A model generated the notes under the pieces. That model was not told the origin of the DNA and did no database searches. It saw only the letters and a program-made list of their open reading frames with translations. From the sequence record DRR378314_213: 20,000 bases of DNA. One strand, 5' to 3'. Each line of letters starts with the position of its first letter. Position 1 is the stretch's first letter. Positions 11,500 through 18,126 of this stretch are shown here, piece by piece. Position numbers and translations under genes: made by a program.

Positions 11500-12629
11500 C
11501 CATTTCCAACTTTGAATTTCAGATCCAGTCGACAGATGGTGCTGCCCGGCGCGGAACATTGAAGACAGCTCACGGGGAGATCAGGACCCCAGCATTCATG
11601 CCGGTGGGCACTGTTGGTACGGTTAAAGGGATGACCCCGGAAGCGGTGCGGGAGACCGGAGCCGACATATTGCTTGGGAATACCTATCATTTGATGTTGC
11701 GCCCTGGCTCAGAGCGGGTGAAAAAGCTGGGTGGTTTGCACAAATTCATGAATTGGGAGCGGCCGATCCTGACAGATTCCGGGGGCTTTCAGGTTATGTC
11801 CTTGAATGAGCTTCGGAAAATTGATGAAAATGGCGTGGTGTTTAAATCCCATATCGATGGCAAAAAGTTTGAGCTAACACCCGAGCGATCCATGCAGATC
11901 CAGAACGATCTGGATGCGACCATAACGATGGCATTTGACGAATGCACACCGTTTCCGGCGGATCATAAACTTGCGGCTGACAGCATGCGCCGGTCCATGC
12001 GGTGGGCGAAACGCTCCCGCGATGGGTTTGAAAAGCGAACGGGCTATGGTCTGTTTGGAATTGTTCAGGGGTCCATCTATGAAGACCTGCGAAAAGAAAG
12101 CATAGAAGCTTTGACCGATATTGGGTTTGACGGATATGCAATCGGCGGATTGGCTGTTGGTGAGGGGCAGGAGAATATGTTTAAGACCCTTGAATTCACC
12201 ACGCCCAATATGCCGACGGAAAAACCCCGGTACCTGATGGGGGTTGGTAAGCCGGACGATCTGGTTGGTGGTGTTATGCGGGGTGTTGATATGTTCGATT
12301 GTGTTTTACCGACACGATCCGGGCGAAATGCACAGGCTTTTACCCGTTATGGGACAGTCAATATGCGAAATGCCCGCCATCAGGAAGATCCAAGACCTTT
12401 GGATGAAAATTGTAAATGTCCGGCCTGCCGGAATTATTCACGCGCTTATTTGCATCATTTGTTCAGGGCGAAGGAAATTCTCGGATCAGTCTTACTGACC
12501 TGGCATAATCTGCAATATTATCAAGATCTTATGGCAGGTATGCGAAAAGCAATTGGCGAAGGTGAGTTGGCGGATTTCGCCCTGGCTTTTCATGCTGCGC
12601 AAGATCAGGGTGATATCGACCCGCTTTAG
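11496..12629 (+). CDS. tgt: Queuine tRNA-ribosyltransferase (tRNA-guanine transglycosylase)
   Basis: [35 protein letters not shown], zinc site CKCPAC...H; ATGA overlap with the queA stop. Confidence 0.98.
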
Positions 12630-13840
12630 GTTTCCTCAAAGCTCATTCGGGTTCCAAGGATCTTTTGCACCTCTGCAACCGGTAGGGGTTTGGAGATCAA
12701 ATAACCTTGCCCGAAATGGCAATCCAAATCCCGATAGAGGGAAAGCTGCTTCATGGTTTCAATCCCCTCGGCCACGATTTCCAGGTTCATGTTATGAGAT
12801 AATCCGGCGATGGCCCGAACGATTTCCTGGCTGCCCTGATCACTGAGCATATTATGGGTGAAAGAGCGGTCGATTTTCAGTTTATCAATTGGGAACTGAT
12901 GCAGGTAGCTGAGGCTTGAATATCCAGTGCCAAAGTCATCGAGAACGATCTTAAATCCGAAACTTTTCAGGTCCTGAAGCATCTCCTTGGCACAATTGGT
13001 ATCTGCCATCAGGATAGTTTCAGTGATCTCCAGTTCTATATGCTCCGGATTAACTTTAGTTTTGAGTGCGATTGCTTTAATCGTTTCGACCAGATCGGGT
13101 TCAGAAAATTGTTTGGCGGAAATATTGATGCTGACAAACACTTCCGGGCTGCGATGTTTTGAAGCCCGTTCATTGAACTCTATAGATTTGAGGCACGCCT
13201 CTTCAAACACCCAGTCACCAATTTCCTGGATCATGTCGGTTTGTTCCGCGATATCGATAAAGTGATAGGGGGTTAGCAACCCTTTTTCTGGATGGTTCCA
13301 ACGGATTAAAGCCTCAAAGCCGGCTGTAAACCCGCCCCGTAGAGAGATGATTGGTTGGAAAAACAGTTCAAACTCTGAATTGACAAGCGCTGCTTGTAAT
13401 TCTTCTTTTATTCTAAATCGTTGGACCAGTTCTTCACTGGTGGTTTGTAGCTTCTTCTCGCGATGATGCCGTCGGGATGAGAATGTATTGATCTGCTCAT
13501 CGGTGCCGTAATGCTTCAGGGTCAAATTGTGACATCGATCCATGAAGAAATTGAGAAACAGGCTGAGGAGGGGATCTACGTGAGCAGTTTTTTCTTCAAT
13601 ATCAGAAAGAGTAACCACAACGAGTAAGCTGTCTTCCTCCGCCACAGCCGTCGAATAATGCGCAGCCCCTTCAATCACACCATATTCACCAAACATGTCA
13701 CCCGGGCCAAGCGAATAGCTCCCGAGGCTGGACGCCCGGTCACTTACCGCGACTTTGCCCTGTTCGACAATATACGCGTATTCACCTGTTTCCTTGTCAG
13801 AGAGAATGATGTCTCCCTTTTTGACCTGTATACGATGCAA
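12626..13840 (-). CDS. cNMP-binding-like domain fused to an EAL c-di-GMP phosphodiesterase domain (no GGDEF)
   Basis: N-term GDII...AYIVEQGKV...GPGDMFGE (cNMP barrel). C-term [55 protein letters not shown] start is bounded by an in-frame TAA two codons upstream. Confidence 0.9.
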
Positions 13841-14284: not shown

Positions 14285-15445
14285 TTAAACCGAGTTATCG
14301 TTTTTTTTCAATAACTTCGCCTTTTCAGGAATTTTCAAATTTTTTTCATTGCTGGTTTTACCGTCATTTTCGTAAAGCATTGTCATGAGAATCTTGTCTA
14401 AAAACCGAAAAATGAAGTCGATACTATAGCCAGCCAGGAAAGCCAGAGCCAATGGGCTTAGGGAACTATCCCCGGGATCGATTGTTAATAGCTGTTCAAT
14501 ATTTTCTGGAACCGGCTTTGGCGGTCCACTTGTGGGATGGATGAAAAAACTGATCATCATTCCGGCTAACGGTCCTTGGGCCAGACGTAGATTATAATTG
14601 ATATAGGAGTTTCGCGAAAAAATGAGGCTCGAGATCTCTCTTGGCAGCTGGCGGAGGATATAAAAACAGGCGCCGATCAATCCATAGAGGATCGGTAGAA
14701 GATATTCACTGATCGCTTGCAAGGTGTTCTCGGCTGCGACGAACTGAATTCGTTTCTGAATCGCTTTGGAGTAAGACTTGAAATCCTCGTCTTGCCAGGG
14801 TTGGTAGGTGAACACATCCAGATTGGACCAGACTTCATTCCAGTTCTGCAGATGATTGGTCGCCGCGTCACGCCAGTTTAGATGTTCGTTGAGTTGATCG
14901 CGGATCAATCCCAGTTCAAGCGCTCGCGGATGGTCAATGCTCAAGTGATCCTGTGGTGGGTTTCGAGTTGTTTGTTTGGAAAGTGTAACCAGCCGGTCGT
15001 TTAATGCCGATATATTTTGATTTTGCGTATTGATATCCAATACGAGGGCATAGCCCACATACCAGTAGATTTGAATCGCGATCAATAAAAATAATGTAGA
15101 CATGGACAGGATCCGATAGCGCGTGACACAGCGCTCTGACAGCGATCGCCTACTGCGCCGCCAAAACCAAAAGCGGCTTTCTTTTGAAGCGGTAACAGGT
15201 GGGTAGTTGGACAGGATACTGTCGATGGTAATCGGATGGAGCAGATCACAAAGCTCACTGTAAGCTACCCAAAAGGCAATCCGATTGTCTTTGGTTAGAG
15301 TATCTAGCTGGTCACAATCTGTAACCGTCAGGATCGCGTTCATCACATTTTCGGGAATAGGCAGGGCACATTCACTGGCGACCTGTATCATCAGGCTCGC
15401 GTTTTCAGCTGAGGATAGAAGGCGGCTGTCGTGAGCTATAGACAC
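14285..15445 (-). CDS. Hypothetical membrane protein (about 4 TM segments plus a coiled-coil-like loop)
   Basis: 386-codon ORF with GTG start (uncertain). Hydrophobic segments LFLLIAIQIYWYVGYALVL, YLLPILYGLIGACFYIL, GPLAGMMISFFI and LALAFLAGYSIDFIF. Confidence 0.8.
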   Translation of the reverse strand: MSIAHDSRLLSSAENASLMIQVASECALPIPENVMNAILTVTDCDQLDTLTKDNRIAFWVAYSELCDLLHPITIDSILSNYPPVTASKESRFWFWRRSRRSLSERCVTRYRILSMSTLFLLIAIQIYWYVGYALVLDINTQNQNISALNDRLVTLSKQTTRNPPQDHLSIDHPRALELGLIRDQLNEHLNWRDAATNHLQNWNEVWSNLDVFTYQPWQDEDFKSYSKAIQKRIQFVAAENTLQAISEYLLPILYGLIGACFYILRQLPREISSLIFSRNSYINYNLRLAQGPLAGMMISFFIHPTSGPPKPVPENIEQLLTIDPGDSSLSPLALAFLAGYSIDFIFRFLDKILMTMLYENDGKTSNEKNLKIPEKAKLLKKNDNSV

Positions 15446-15592
15446 TTTAGGATCCTGAGATTACCTGTGCGGTGCAAAAGGTTGCTCAAGTAAGACGGTA
15501 ACAATTTGAAATCTGTGAGGGTTGGTCTTGTGAAGTCAGACGGTGCTCAGTATAAATTTAGAATGCTTGATACTATAAGGGGTTTCTGTTCA

Positions 15593-15943
15593 GTGATTAC
15601 GATTTACGGCATCAAAACATGCGACACGGTTCGAAAAGCGTTAAAATGGGCTGCAGCGGAAGGGTTGGATCATCAGTTCCATGACTTTCGAAAAGATCCC
15701 GTATCTATTGAGCAGATCCAGAATTGGGAAAAAGCAGTCGGGCGGGATGTGCTGATCAACAAAAAGGGCGCTACTTATCGCAAGATGGATGCGGATGAGA
15801 AGGCAATCCTTGAAGGGGATGCGCCTTATGAATTACTTCAGGCGCAGCCAACACTCATGAAGCGCCCCGTTTTTGAAAAGGGAGCACAAGTGGTTGTTGG
15901 ATTTAAAGCTCCGGAACAACAGGCCGTCCTGACGTTTTCCTAA
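15593..15943 (+). CDS. ArsC/Spx/MgsR (YffB-like) thioredoxin-fold protein
   Basis: ITIYGIKTCDTVRKALKW, FHDFRKD, LINKKGATYRK, PTLMKRPV..VVVGF. GTG 15593 preceded by AAGGGG; the upstream ORF extension looks spurious. Confidence 0.9.
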   Translation: MITIYGIKTCDTVRKALKWAAAEGLDHQFHDFRKDPVSIEQIQNWEKAVGRDVLINKKGATYRKMDADEKAILEGDAPYELLQAQPTLMKRPVFEKGAQVVVGFKAPEQQAVLTFS

Positions 15944-15992: not shown

Positions 15993-16661
15993 TTATTTAA
16001 GCTGCTGAATGTAGCAAAGAACATGATCGATGGTTCGCAGATCCTCACTTAAGGGGAGCGCAATCAAACGAATGGGCATCTCGCCAGTTAAAGATGGGAA
16101 TCTTTCTGTCCCGTGGGTTGGTTTGCCACTTGTCGCTACTTCTCGTGCCAGTCCCAGGATCCAATCGATCACCATGGGGGTGAATTCGATGCGATCAATT
16201 TTCTGCTCTTCAGGTGCGTATTTTTCACTTGTCTTGCGAATAGCTGTTGTGAATTCATACTTCACCTGCAGGCGCCCGATTTCCCGGTTGCAATGGATGA
16301 GAAGACAATTAGGCCAATGCTGACCAATCTTCTCTGGCTCCAGCGACTGCCAGGACGGATAGCGGCGCCCTTGGCGAATGTCCAACCAATAATTCAGGAT
16401 ATCCGGTGCGGCCTGCTTCTTCGGTCCCCAACCTGTATTGCGGATCGGTTTTGATGCCGGGGCGGGCATTGGCGCGGGGGTAATTGCGGCTGGGGCTGCA
16501 GTTGTTTGATCAAGTTCTTCACTCAACAGGGCCAGCCGCCGGGTAATGTCACCAGCTTTCGGAGCGTCGGGTTGGGCCAGGCTCGTCTTTCGGACCTGAA
16601 TACGGGCTAAAGAAGCGGCATTGCCGCAATCTACATCCTCTTGATCAAACACATTTGGCAT
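15993..16661 (-). CDS. PAS-like (PAS_5/DUF1457-type) domain protein with a low-complexity Pro/Ala-rich N-terminus
   Basis: ILNYWLDIRQGRRYPSWQSLEPEKIGQHWPNCLLI and terminal RLIALPLSEDLRTIDHVL match the YW..R..R..P....LPLS.DG pattern of PAS_5; linker TTAAPAAITPAPMPAPASKP. Confidence 0.65.
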   Translation of the reverse strand: MPNVFDQEDVDCGNAASLARIQVRKTSLAQPDAPKAGDITRRLALLSEELDQTTAAPAAITPAPMPAPASKPIRNTGWGPKKQAAPDILNYWLDIRQGRRYPSWQSLEPEKIGQHWPNCLLIHCNREIGRLQVKYEFTTAIRKTSEKYAPEEQKIDRIEFTPMVIDWILGLAREVATSGKPTHGTERFPSLTGEMPIRLIALPLSEDLRTIDHVLCYIQQLK

Positions 16662-16676
16662 GATGCACCCCTTTTT

Positions 16677-17192
16677 TTATTTGCTGGTAATCTGTTTCAA
16701 CAAACAATTGCAGGTTTGTGGTAAAATCTCTTCCCCATGTTTTTCGACATATTCCCGCAAGGCTTCCTCCAGGATAAATTGTGAGGATTTACGGGCATGA
16801 GTGGACAGAAGTTTTAGCGTTAGATGATCATCCGGGCACAGGCGGACGCTCATGCGGACACGGCCCAGATTATCTTTTTTCAGTTTTTTCTGATCGGTGT
16901 TGCGGTACCTCTCCATCGACGATGCCGCCGGTTTCTGCCGAATTGCTTTTCGGGGGGTGACTGCAGGTTCAGAAGCCTGCGCCACCGGCCGTGAAGAGGG
17001 GTTGGATGTTGGTCTGTGATCGCTTTGAGGTTCTGAGACAGAAGCGTTCTCTGTGCGCTTGGCAAGGGTTTCCGCTTGAGCAGGCATCTTGCTGTGGCTG
17101 GCCAAAAGATCACTCGCCGCTTTTGAGCGCGTTGCCGGTGTTGCCGATCCTTTTGAACTGATCAGGGAACTGGAAAGAAATGCAGCTTTCAT
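16677..17192 (-). CDS. ParA-partner protein with disordered N-terminus and C-terminal ribbon-helix-helix (ParG-like)
   Basis: RVRMSVRL (strand) - PDDHLTLKLLSTH (helix) - SSQFILEEALREY (helix). S/P/A-rich middle, N-terminal LSSSLISSKGSATPA, GGAAGGAG SD, 20 nt after the parA stop. Confidence 0.7.
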   Translation of the reverse strand: MKAAFLSSSLISSKGSATPATRSKAASDLLASHSKMPAQAETLAKRTENASVSEPQSDHRPTSNPSSRPVAQASEPAVTPRKAIRQKPAASSMERYRNTDQKKLKKDNLGRVRMSVRLCPDDHLTLKLLSTHARKSSQFILEEALREYVEKHGEEILPQTCNCLLKQITSK

Positions 17193-17212
17193 AGTGGGGT
17201 ACTCCTTCCAGA

Positions 17213-17911
17213 CTAGACCGAAGCCATTTGTGTACCAAAAGCTTTGGTTGGCTTTTGCTGGCGACGAATATGTGAGGACATTGCAACAGGGATTTTGTTG
17301 AGCCGTTCATTCACATAAGACCAGAGTTTGGTGATTTCCTCACTGGATTTGGACGCGGAATTTAATTCCATCACCGTTCGTCCATCAATCATGCTGGAGG
17401 CAAAATCCACCCGCTGATGCAGGATGGAAGGGGCCAGGGTTCCGTGTTGGGAAAGGGCAATCGCGGCCTCTCCGGTAATTCGGGCCCGGGGAGTTGCTCC
17501 GTTCACGACAAATAGCAAAGGCGTATCCAAACCTTCTGCCAGTTCAACTGTTGCCCCAACGGCCCTAAGGTCATGCGGGCTCGGCCGGGTTGGGATGATC
17601 AACAGGTCTGATACAGTTAGCACATTTGCGATAGTTTCAGTGATGGCAGGGGGGGTATCAATGATTAAAAGCTCAATGCCCATGCGGTCCATTCGAGCCA
17701 CATCGGTTTTTAGCTTTTCAATGGAGGTTCTAGCAAAAAGGGGCGTTTCTGCTTCTCGTTCATTCCACCATTCGGACAAACTGCCCTGAGGATCAGTATC
17801 AACAAGGGCAACAGGACCGGCGCCGGTCATTTCGGCCTGAACCGCCAGATGGCCGGCAAGGGTGGTTTTACCAGAGCCGCCTTTTTGAGAAGCAACCGCA
17901 ATCACCTTCAT
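17213..17911 (-). CDS. Orphan ParA/MinD-family ATPase (short type Ib/ParF-like, no N-terminal HTH)
   Basis: Deviant Walker A QKGGSGKTT, LVDTDPQGS, Walker B IIDTPP, IPTRPSPHDL; GGAG SD. Confidence 0.93.
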   Translation of the reverse strand: MKVIAVASQKGGSGKTTLAGHLAVQAEMTGAGPVALVDTDPQGSLSEWWNEREAETPLFARTSIEKLKTDVARMDRMGIELLIIDTPPAITETIANVLTVSDLLIIPTRPSPHDLRAVGATVELAEGLDTPLLFVVNGATPRARITGEAAIALSQHGTLAPSILHQRVDFASSMIDGRTVMELNSASKSSEEITKLWSYVNERLNKIPVAMSSHIRRQQKPTKAFGTQMASV

Positions 17912-18074
17912 CGGTATTCTCCATTAAATGTCAACAGTTACGCAAATAAAACTAAATCATTCAGGAGAATATGAGGTAAATAAATTAAGATACGTTTACG
18001 AACTAAGTATCAATAAAGTAAAAAGACAGTATTTATTGTTTATTATTGTAAATAAAATTTCATAAAATTTTACA

Positions 18075-18105
18075 AAGGCAGGGTTTTATTGAAATCCCCT
18101 GCCTT
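18075..18105 (-). terminator. Probable terminator downstream of the enoyl-CoA hydratase gene
   Basis: AAGGCAGGG (18075-18083) / CCCTGCCTT (18097-18105) 9-bp inverted repeat, 21 nt after the stop at 18127; weak U-tail. Confidence 0.55.
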
Positions 18106-18126
18106 CGAAAGTCACCATTGAGCTGA

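Follow-up and report, generated by a model that had tools for sequence, protein, structure and literature searches.

A conserved ParA and ribbon-helix-helix gene pair on alphaproteobacterial chromosomes, probably derived from a type Ib partition system of plasmids

What does a plasmid-type ParA ATPase do among housekeeping genes, and which protein acts with it? The question is raised by three genes on the minus strand of a 20,000-nt stretch of DNA from sequence record DRR378314_213 (the window, hereafter). The first, parA (17213-17911; 232 aa in the list of open reading frames, ORFs), encodes a short ParA/ParF-like deviant Walker A ATPase. The second (16677-17192; 171 aa) encodes a partner with an N-terminal peptide of the ParA-interaction type, a disordered linker, a C-terminal ribbon-helix-helix (RHH) domain, and a CxC motif. 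The third (15993-16661; 222 aa) encodes a protein with short N-terminal motifs, a Pro/Ala linker, and a PAS_5-like domain. The gaps between them were 20 nt (17193-17212) and 15 nt (16662-16676), and all three ATG codons had a GGAG-type or G-rich site (purine-rich, resembling a ribosome-binding site) 6-9 nt upstream, in agreement with the initial annotation, which had described three co-oriented genes with these gaps and their own Shine-Dalgarno-like sites. No terminator-like site above chance was found between the three genes, and co-transcription of parA, the RHH gene, and the PAS gene is therefore plausible. Our answer, to which we assign a probability of roughly 0.6, is that the locus goes back to a type Ib plasmid partition module and has been inherited vertically on the chromosome, that Sneathiella and some relatives added a PAS gene to it, and that its nucleoid-bound ParA would be activated by the RHH partner in the way that ParG activates ParF.

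Judged by its motifs and alignments, the parA product is a predicted ParF-like deviant Walker A ATPase. The motifs were intact, as first described for a short ParA: a deviant Walker A motif SQKGGSGKTT (KGGSGKTT from residue 10), DTDPQ, and IIDTPP. The best match among solved ParA relatives was ParF of TP228 (4dzz; ParA residues 1-192 against ParF 1-195, E 3e-17). In its 232-aa length, the position of KGGSGKTT, and the full-length alignment to ParF, the protein has the features of type Ib ParAs. Pfam matches were AAA_31, CbiA, VirC1, and MipZ, and the PHROG match was "ParA-like partition protein" (1.9e-41). A VirC1/VirC2 type, acting in T-DNA transfer, was considered and rejected: the Pfam VirC1 match passed its cut-off (34.8 vs. 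24), the NCBIfam VirC1 score was far under it (33.8 vs. 313), and the window held no transfer genes, whether for a relaxosome or for a type IV secretion system (T4SS). The protein search returned at least 8000 ParA matches, with identities of 78-92% among the 54 best listed matches (the named ones being Sneathiella) and of 63-75% among the other listed matches. For all three proteins the named closest relatives listed were Sneathiella, the nearest being S. limimaris (92% identity for ParA and 84% for the PAS protein). ParA was 57-75% identical in other alphaproteobacterial orders, so that chromosomal relatives in Sneathiella, Sphingomonadales, Parvibaculum, Kordiimonas, Kiloniellales, and Stellaceae spanned 57-92% overall. 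It was much better conserved than its RHH partner.

The partner matched no Pfam or NCBIfam family, and no curated family covered the members of the partner family that were scanned. A three-part design was common to 35 word-seeded homologues, the named ones from Sneathiella or Sneathiellales. The first part was a near-invariant N-terminal peptide, MKAAFLSSSLISSKGSAGPATRS. In the window it occupied codons 1-23 (17124-17192, minus strand; MKAAFLSSSLISSKGSATPATRS) and included K14 and G15, as delimited by alignments and by a hidden Markov model (HMM) of the motif; the HMM built on the peptide alone matched the whole window once. Residues F5, L6, L10, I11, K14, G15, and P19 were invariant in 36 partner sequences. 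In a larger alignment K14 was invariant in 93 of 93 partners, and L6, L10, G15, A17, and P19 were conserved in at least 90%. The second part was a linker, variable in both length and sequence. The third part was a C-terminal block of the form GRVRMSxR...HLxLKLL...SxQxIxEEALxEY that ended in P-x2-C-x-C. A search of 1.84 billion cluster representatives with the partner profile recovered 698 proteins at E ≤ 1e-3 (113 at E ≤ 1e-10); the three-part design recurred in them, and K-G was found within the first 40 residues in 172 of the 179 family sequences inspected.

Four lines of evidence identify the C-terminal block (codons ~104-160; 16713-16883, minus strand) as an RHH domain: sub-threshold Pfam matches, profile comparison with solved structures, PHROGs, and structure prediction with AlphaFold (AF2) followed by Foldseek. 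Sub-threshold RHH matches in Pfam were obtained for 17 of 30 family members. The family profile matched 56B (5e-4), E73, omega (0.05), ParG (0.14), and McdB (0.38) in the Protein Data Bank (PDB), and the PHROG match was an Arc-like repressor (9e-5). The AlphaFold model comprised one strand followed by two helices, together spanning residues ~106-156 (pLDDT 90-97), for which Foldseek returned CopA_SO, omega, PutA, CopG, and Arc with target-normalised TM scores of up to 0.85. A look-up in the ESM Atlas gave "hypothetical protein" clusters plus a single Antitox_RHH cluster. Thus the Lys-containing peptide, the linker, and the C-terminal RHH of the initial annotation all stood, but its placement of the CNC motif at the very end of the protein did not: C161-N162-C163 (codons 161-163; 16704-16712, minus strand) lies 8 residues ahead of the C-terminus. 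Both cysteines were invariant in the 36-sequence alignment and conserved in at least 90% of the 93-sequence alignment. The motif was present in Sneathiella partners and in most partners from Rhodospirillales-like genomes, Stellaceae, Emcibacteraceae, and Kordiimonas; it was not found in Sphingomonadales partners by a crude pattern scan, nor in the plasmid partners examined. An RHH dimer would gather four CxC cysteines, which suggests a metal or redox site.

Is the pair peculiar to this DNA? A genome scan with the ParA alignment gave at least 600 matching stretches and at least 580 relatives; the counts of loci below refer to the best 80 (57-84% identity), several of them on contigs of 1-5 Mb. 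In addition to Sphingomonadales, loci were found in Parvibaculum, Kordiimonas, Kiloniellales, Emcibacteraceae, Stellaceae, Inquilinaceae, and metagenome-assembled genomes (MAGs) labelled Rhodospirillaceae. Confinement of the locus to one strain, an outcome named at the outset as counting against a chromosomal system, was thus not observed, and the pair was conserved across several alphaproteobacterial orders. The gene after parA began with the peptide L-[ST]-x2-L-[LI]-x2-K-G-x-A-x-P in 79 of the 80 loci (77 of 77 extracted ORFs passed the peptide-only HMM, and L016 and L027 were added by eye). The C-terminal module was an RHH in 69 loci (67 by scan, plus the same two).

One locus of the 80, L043 (Novosphingobium organovorum; 1050-1772 and downstream), had no partner gene; its parA was directly followed by an ORF with a signal-peptide-like N-terminus that resembled the TPR-SPOR proteins of other loci. 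This arrangement suggests that the RHH gene was lost in that lineage. Two loci bore unexpected labels, probably through binning or labelling errors: L004 was labelled as an uncultured Mycobacteriaceae MAG and held a typical alphaproteobacterial parA-RHH-PAS locus, and L068 was labelled Maricaulis and nested among Sphingomonadales ParAs. In another MAG a second ParA paralogue (L012:3921-4595; 224 aa, VirC1-like in Pfam and matched by the ParA model at E 8e-78) was located just 5′ of the conserved parA-RHH-PAS cluster.

The partner's C-terminal module differed between lineages. Among the 10 partners without an RHH, seven carried a Pfam SPOR domain above cut-off (L003, L006, L007, L018, L022, L038, and L062, including two Parvibaculum genomes). 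These retained the N-terminal peptide (e.g., KPASLTSSLLARKGEAEP), followed by a long disordered cytoplasmic stretch and a Pro/Ala-rich region, and ended in the SPOR domain (40-58 bits in Pfam); a hydrophobic, transmembrane-like stretch was recognised by eye in the six SPOR-type sequences that were examined together. Of the remaining non-RHH partners, L013 combined the peptide with a membrane helix, and L009 and L014 carried something else. SPOR domains also occurred next to the RHH gene: an ORF of at least 420 aa (~430-560 aa) started beside the RHH stop codon in 54 of the 80 loci, mostly Sphingomonadales (e.g., L034:6394-7767, L068:6392-7744, and L080:6330-7712), and all 20 of these ORFs that were scanned with Pfam contained TPR repeats and a SPOR domain. 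Many of the 54 had N-termini resembling signal peptides or lipoboxes by eye. According to the accessible part of PMC7822825, SPOR domains bind amidase-processed peptidoglycan. Since sister lineages fuse the peptide to a membrane-SPOR module or place a TPR-SPOR protein after the RHH gene, this ParA family probably has a role connected with the division septum or the cell cycle, by guilt by association.

This ParA is not far from those of plasmids. With ParA as the query, tblastn matched 2379 plasmid records, and the best matches (54-66% identity) came from small plasmids in Comamonas, Deefgea, Methylomonas, Thiothrix, Pseudomonas, E. coli, and Xanthomonas. In all eight close plasmids that were opened, the gene after parA encoded the peptide (e.g., KASSLSAGLIAKKGQAVPA), a short linker, and an RHH domain, with the six annotated partners measuring 80-114 aa; in several of the eight the pair was near resolvase or replication genes, with the gene order resolvase-parA-x-repA. 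In distant plasmids (ParA 32-38% identical), the four annotated partners were RHH proteins without the peptide. Because the partners of close plasmids have the peptide and those of distant plasmids lack it, the peptide is a signature of this ParA clade, which it always accompanies, on chromosomes and plasmids alike. When three queries from the RHH partner family were run with tblastn against 72,556 plasmids, none of them gave a match.

A maximum-likelihood tree was built from 62 ParAs (that of the window, 11 relatives from the protein search, 37 of the 80 loci after thinning of Sphingomonadales, and 13 from plasmids). All 49 chromosomal ParAs were placed on one side of a branch with SH-aLRT support of 95, and the 13 plasmid ParAs were outside it. 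Sneathiella, Sphingomonadales, Parvibaculum, and Stellaceae each grouped as expected, and the internal order was roughly taxonomic. Clustering with recent plasmid ParFs, which would have spoken for a late arrival, was not seen. With housekeeping genes around it, relatives on 1-5 Mb contigs, and a ParA clade apart from those of plasmids, the locus departs from type Ib systems, which are carried on plasmids.

The proposal of a chromosomal module like ParF/ParG has therefore held up in its core: a ParF-like ParA, an RHH partner with a conserved Lys tail, and the same design in plasmid par operons. The partner gene is directly 3′ of parA (20-nt gap) and its product has a predicted RHH fold, as in type Ib systems, although at 171 aa it is longer than their ParB proteins, which measure 46-131 aa and are often RHH proteins, according to the available portion of PMC3235114. 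We propose that the module became chromosomal early in the history of the Alphaproteobacteria and that strong selection would have maintained it since then. If it works as ParF/ParG, delta/omega, and other ParA systems do, the nucleoid would be coated by dimers of ATP-bound ParA; the RHH dimer would recognise specific DNA, probably within or close to its own promoter, and would also autoregulate from there; the N-terminal peptide would dock on the ParA dimer, with the invariant Lys14 stimulating ATP hydrolysis; and the resulting ParA gradient may position the RHH-bound locus or complex. The PAS protein would most likely be a clade-specific extra regulator, adaptor, or client of the pair.

The resemblance to ParF/ParG of TP228 lies in an RHH partner with an N-terminal tail that carries a basic residue. 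Work published by Barilla in 2007 reportedly found that the flexible tail of ParG stimulates the ParF ATPase through an arginine-finger-like motif. The Sneathiella-type locus differs in being chromosomal, conserved across orders, and equipped with a third gene for a PAS protein; its partner is twice as long as ParG and marginally similar to it, with Lys as the key basic residue and a CxC motif, and centromere repeats were not found beside this operon. Closest by sequence were the par operons of small beta- and gammaproteobacterial plasmids (Comamonas pZM22-2, Deefgea, Thiothrix pTunz3, Pseudomonas pMRCP1333, 10-kb plasmids of E. coli, and Xanthomonas pXCV19), which may include the pRA2 ParAB type. 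As here, their partners begin with a motif, K-x-A-x-L-[ST]-x-G-L-[VI]-A-x-K-G-x-A-x-P, that is followed by a linker and an RHH; they differ from the partner in the window in their shorter length, in lacking CxC, and in being encoded between resolvase and rep genes, and their ParAs lie outside the chromosomal clade. The delta/omega system of pSM19035 likewise pairs a small ParA with an RHH partner, and omega, both centromere binder and repressor in that system, was among the best profile and fold matches; however, it belongs to a Firmicute plasmid, its N-terminal motif is not shared, and its ParA is of another subfamily.

Several observations weigh against this interpretation. The partner, at 171 aa, exceeds the size range of type Ib ParB proteins because of its long linker. 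The NCBIfam model ParA_partition (NF041546) aligned with ParA over positions 1-202 of 203 at 165 bits (E 1.6e-48), under its cut-off of 180 bits. The search for a centromere-like array of repeats around the operon was negative; a 10-bp unit repeated 1.9 times and weak repeats 5′ of parA were all that was detected, and the 10-bp word was not enriched in the window (9 matches vs. 9.8 expected). The tree search was a quick one, SH-aLRT was its sole measure of support, and the outgroup branches were very long; the 80 loci, being mostly Sphingomonadales, are not a balanced sample. Finally, Pfam and other family scans detected no SPOR gene in the window, so the link to the septum rests on other lineages.

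If nothing is positioned, the pair could mainly be a transcriptional regulator, with the RHH protein repressing its own operon or other genes in the manner of Arc, CopG, or omega and with ParA as its co-factor. The nearest relatives of the RHH domain are indeed repressors and DNA-binding domains of antitoxins, and the accessible text of PMC3235114 describes type Ib ParB proteins as autorepressors; that no centromere array was found points the same way. We nevertheless consider this explanation unlikely. Identities of 57-92% in ParA across orders, together with an invariant peptide directed at ParA, argue for selection on the ATPase cycle, and in the seven SPOR-type loci the peptide is joined to a module incapable of binding DNA.

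The sites at which such regulation, or partition, might take place were sought in the AT-rich 215-nt region 5′ of parA (17912-18126, minus strand), which presumably contains the promoter and any operator or centromere-like site. It also includes a hairpin (18070-18110) that is the terminator of the upstream enoyl-CoA hydratase gene, and the 10-bp tandem unit (18052-18070). Two sequences, those of the window and of the closest related locus (L001), were compared here and had in common the blocks TTTGTAAAATTTTA and TTCGTAA...CTTAATTT. Control of the operon by CtrA found no support: no full TTAA-N7-TTAA box was present 5′ of parA in the window, and the box occurred in 2 of 76 upstream regions. 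In Sphingomonadales loci (e.g., L035, L059, L068, and L075) a conserved element, GTTAACC-N5-TTTTAGCCCTGTTCTGTCAC, was observed at about -57 to -92 from the parA start. GTTAAC was found in 34 of the 76 upstream regions, mostly at that distance. The element, which is not present in the window, reads TTAA-N7-TTAG, which is near a CtrA box without matching it, and it could be a promoter or an RHH operator.

The third protein has two conserved N-terminal motifs. The first, AASLARIQVRK (codons 15-25; 16587-16619, minus strand; consensus AASLxxIxVR+), had A15, A16, S17, L18, and R24 conserved in at least 90% of 32 sequences. The second, KAGDITRRLALLSEEL (codons ~35-53; 16503-16559, minus strand; consensus KAGDITxRLxxLSxEL), was delimited by the alignment and is a predicted helix (residues 39-53, pLDDT ~80). 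A variable, Pro/Ala-rich linker separates them from a folded domain (codons 85-222; 15996-16409, minus strand) that was modelled with pLDDT mostly above 90. All top 50 Foldseek matches of this domain in the PDB were PAS/LOV or PAS-like (E ~1e-3, probability 0.97-1.0, with modest TM scores of 0.35-0.49), and the confident model thus matches solved PAS domains. The short helix, the Pro/Ala linker, and the PAS fold were therefore borne out, but the more specific assignment to PAS_5 fell under its cut-off by sequence (PF07310, 17.2 bits vs. 22); some distant homologues carry a precomputed PF07310 label. The NCBIfam model for MopJ aligned residues 83-217 with model positions 13-146 of 164. Caulobacter MopJ, a single-domain PAS_5 protein described in the available part of PMC4432633 as a cell-cycle regulator that promotes CtrA accumulation, resembles the third protein in the PAS fold and in this weak alignment over the full domain; it differs in that the third protein has an additional 85-residue N-terminal region with conserved motifs and a par-like operon context, and in that the score was 19.7 bits against a cut-off of 200.

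In the genome scan a homologue of the PAS protein was directly 3′ of the RHH gene in 12 of the 80 loci, and all 12 homologues had an N-terminal motif of the form ASL-x2-3-hydrophobic-x-hydrophobic-basic by eye. The RHH and PAS genes had adjacent locus tags in two Sneathiella MAGs (ABJN40_14130/14125 and JJ879_15195/15190) and shared contigs there. Synteny in Sneathiella is thus judged from locus tags, shared contigs, and L001, the best 80 loci including no named Sneathiella genome. The three-gene unit first described was consequently retained in part: the PAS gene was co-conserved in all the Sneathiella evidence but occurred in those 12 other loci alone, and the conserved core therefore consists of two genes. 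The PAS protein would accordingly be read, from its distribution, as a clade-restricted accessory of the parA-RHH pair, for which the signal-gating role first suggested is no more than a possibility. That its N-terminal motifs are conserved speaks for a specific protein to which it would bind. That the first motif copies the partner peptide was considered and rejected. The resemblance, "ASL[ST]", was seen by eye only; the 22-residue peptide HMM scored the PAS N-termini at ~2 bits or less, matching at most "AASL", and the best of the background ORFs that encode no partner reached 3-5 bits. A complex prediction with two ParA chains, two ATP molecules, and PAS residues 1-60 scored 0.00 against a mark of 0.34; having been run without controls and without the alignments built here, it weighs neither way.

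A system for protein cargo, like McdAB, PomXYZ, or ParC/ParP, would assign the PAS protein a larger role, as the cargo or as the nucleus of a complex that is the cargo, with the RHH protein as an adaptor or anchor only. The layout of the PAS protein, with short N-terminal motifs, a disordered linker, and a folded domain, is typical of ParA clients, and the C-terminal module of the partner is exchangeable across lineages (RHH, transmembrane-SPOR, transmembrane only, or other). A gene found in so few loci is, however, not a general cargo, and the HMM of the partner peptide is blind to the PAS N-termini; this explanation is, in our judgement, improbable. McdAB, PomXYZ, PpfA/TlpT, ParC/ParP, and MipZ resemble the present locus in that a chromosomal ParA is located away from parAB and has an adjacent adaptor with a short N-terminal peptide (orphan ParA systems are described in general terms in the accessible portion of PMC9178275). 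They differ in that McdB was a marginal match to the partner, the MipZ Pfam match covered the P-loop alone (residues 3-54), and no carboxysome, chemotaxis, or FtsZ-regulator genes adjoin this locus. None of the non-canonical ParAs named in the available part of a ParA review (PpfA, ParC, McdA, ParI, BcsQ, and MinD) resembles this ParA. We found no report of a conserved alphaproteobacterial ParA-RHH or ParA-SPOR module on the chromosome in a literature search from which subscription journals were mostly excluded.

The surroundings of the operon were of the housekeeping kind first described. The window encodes an ABC transporter, a short-chain dehydrogenase, an Lrp/AsnC regulator, TrkH, gyrA, coaD, a cyclophilin, queA, and tgt, as well as a protein with cyclic-nucleotide-binding and EAL domains (cNMP-EAL), an ArsC/Spx-family gene, an enoyl-CoA hydratase, and an NAD kinase. 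No parB, rep, integrase, or transposase gene was found in it by Pfam, NCBIfam, and other family scans, as had been stated, and tRNA and Rfam RNA scans gave no match. PADLOC defence models matched parA weakly (mad8, 18 bits) and the other proteins not at all. The GC content of the operon (0.49-0.52) was similar to that of the flanks. It is very improbable that the locus is what is left of an integrated plasmid or island, in decay and without host function: the nearest ParAs outside the Alphaproteobacteria are on small plasmids (54-66% identity) with partners of the same design, but none of the three ORFs is disrupted, the tree unites the chromosomal ParAs in a single clade in line with taxonomy, several orders have retained the locus on contigs of Mb size, mobility genes and tRNAs are lacking in the window, the GC content is like that of the flanks, and the RHH family was without a match in the plasmid collection.

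Three neighbouring ORFs deserve mention. A gene at 14285-15445 (minus strand), on the strand of the operon and beyond the oppositely oriented ArsC-family gene, encodes a 386-aa protein with hydrophobic, membrane-like stretches that matched no Pfam, NCBIfam, or PADLOC family; a gene in the same position in L001 encodes a protein with 36% identity (E 4e-70). An apparent likeness of its "NASLMIQV" to the motif of the PAS protein was discarded, not being kept in that orthologue. The ORF at 12626-13840 (minus strand; TTG start) fuses a cyclic-nucleotide-binding domain to EAL, and its product is likely a c-di-GMP phosphodiesterase under cNMP control. The ArsC/Spx-family ORF (15506-15943, plus strand) starts as listed with TTG, 30 residues ahead of the domain, and its true start is probably further downstream.

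The mechanism class proposed for the chromosomal ParA-RHH pair is textbook; its chromosomal domestication, modular partner, and PAS addition are not. Chromosomes, plasmids, carboxysomes, chemoreceptor arrays, and division sites are all organised by ATPases of the ParA/MinD group, and whenever a further partner came to be understood, another positioning problem that cells solve came to light. In the present case many alphaproteobacterial chromosomes retain a plasmid-type ParA with a conservation like that of housekeeping genes, and the one short peptide that goes with it is joined to different modules, either an RHH or a membrane anchor with SPOR. It would be unusual for a client of ParA to read septal peptidoglycan. 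We put forward, tentatively and with low confidence, that the family is an ancient, plasmid-domesticated alphaproteobacterial ParA system that connects nucleoid and division septum by way of interchangeable peptide-bearing partners (an RHH protein bound to a site on the chromosome, or a protein in the membrane with a periplasmic SPOR domain that would read septal peptidoglycan) and that is tuned by the PAS protein in Sneathiella and relatives. If this is true, it would be a previously unrecognised device for coordinating chromosome and division or for positioning the division site. The peptide with its invariant Lys provides a handle, and the lineages with their different partners a basis for comparison, with which to ask what purpose a second ParA system on the chromosome serves and whether it couples the nucleoid to the septum.

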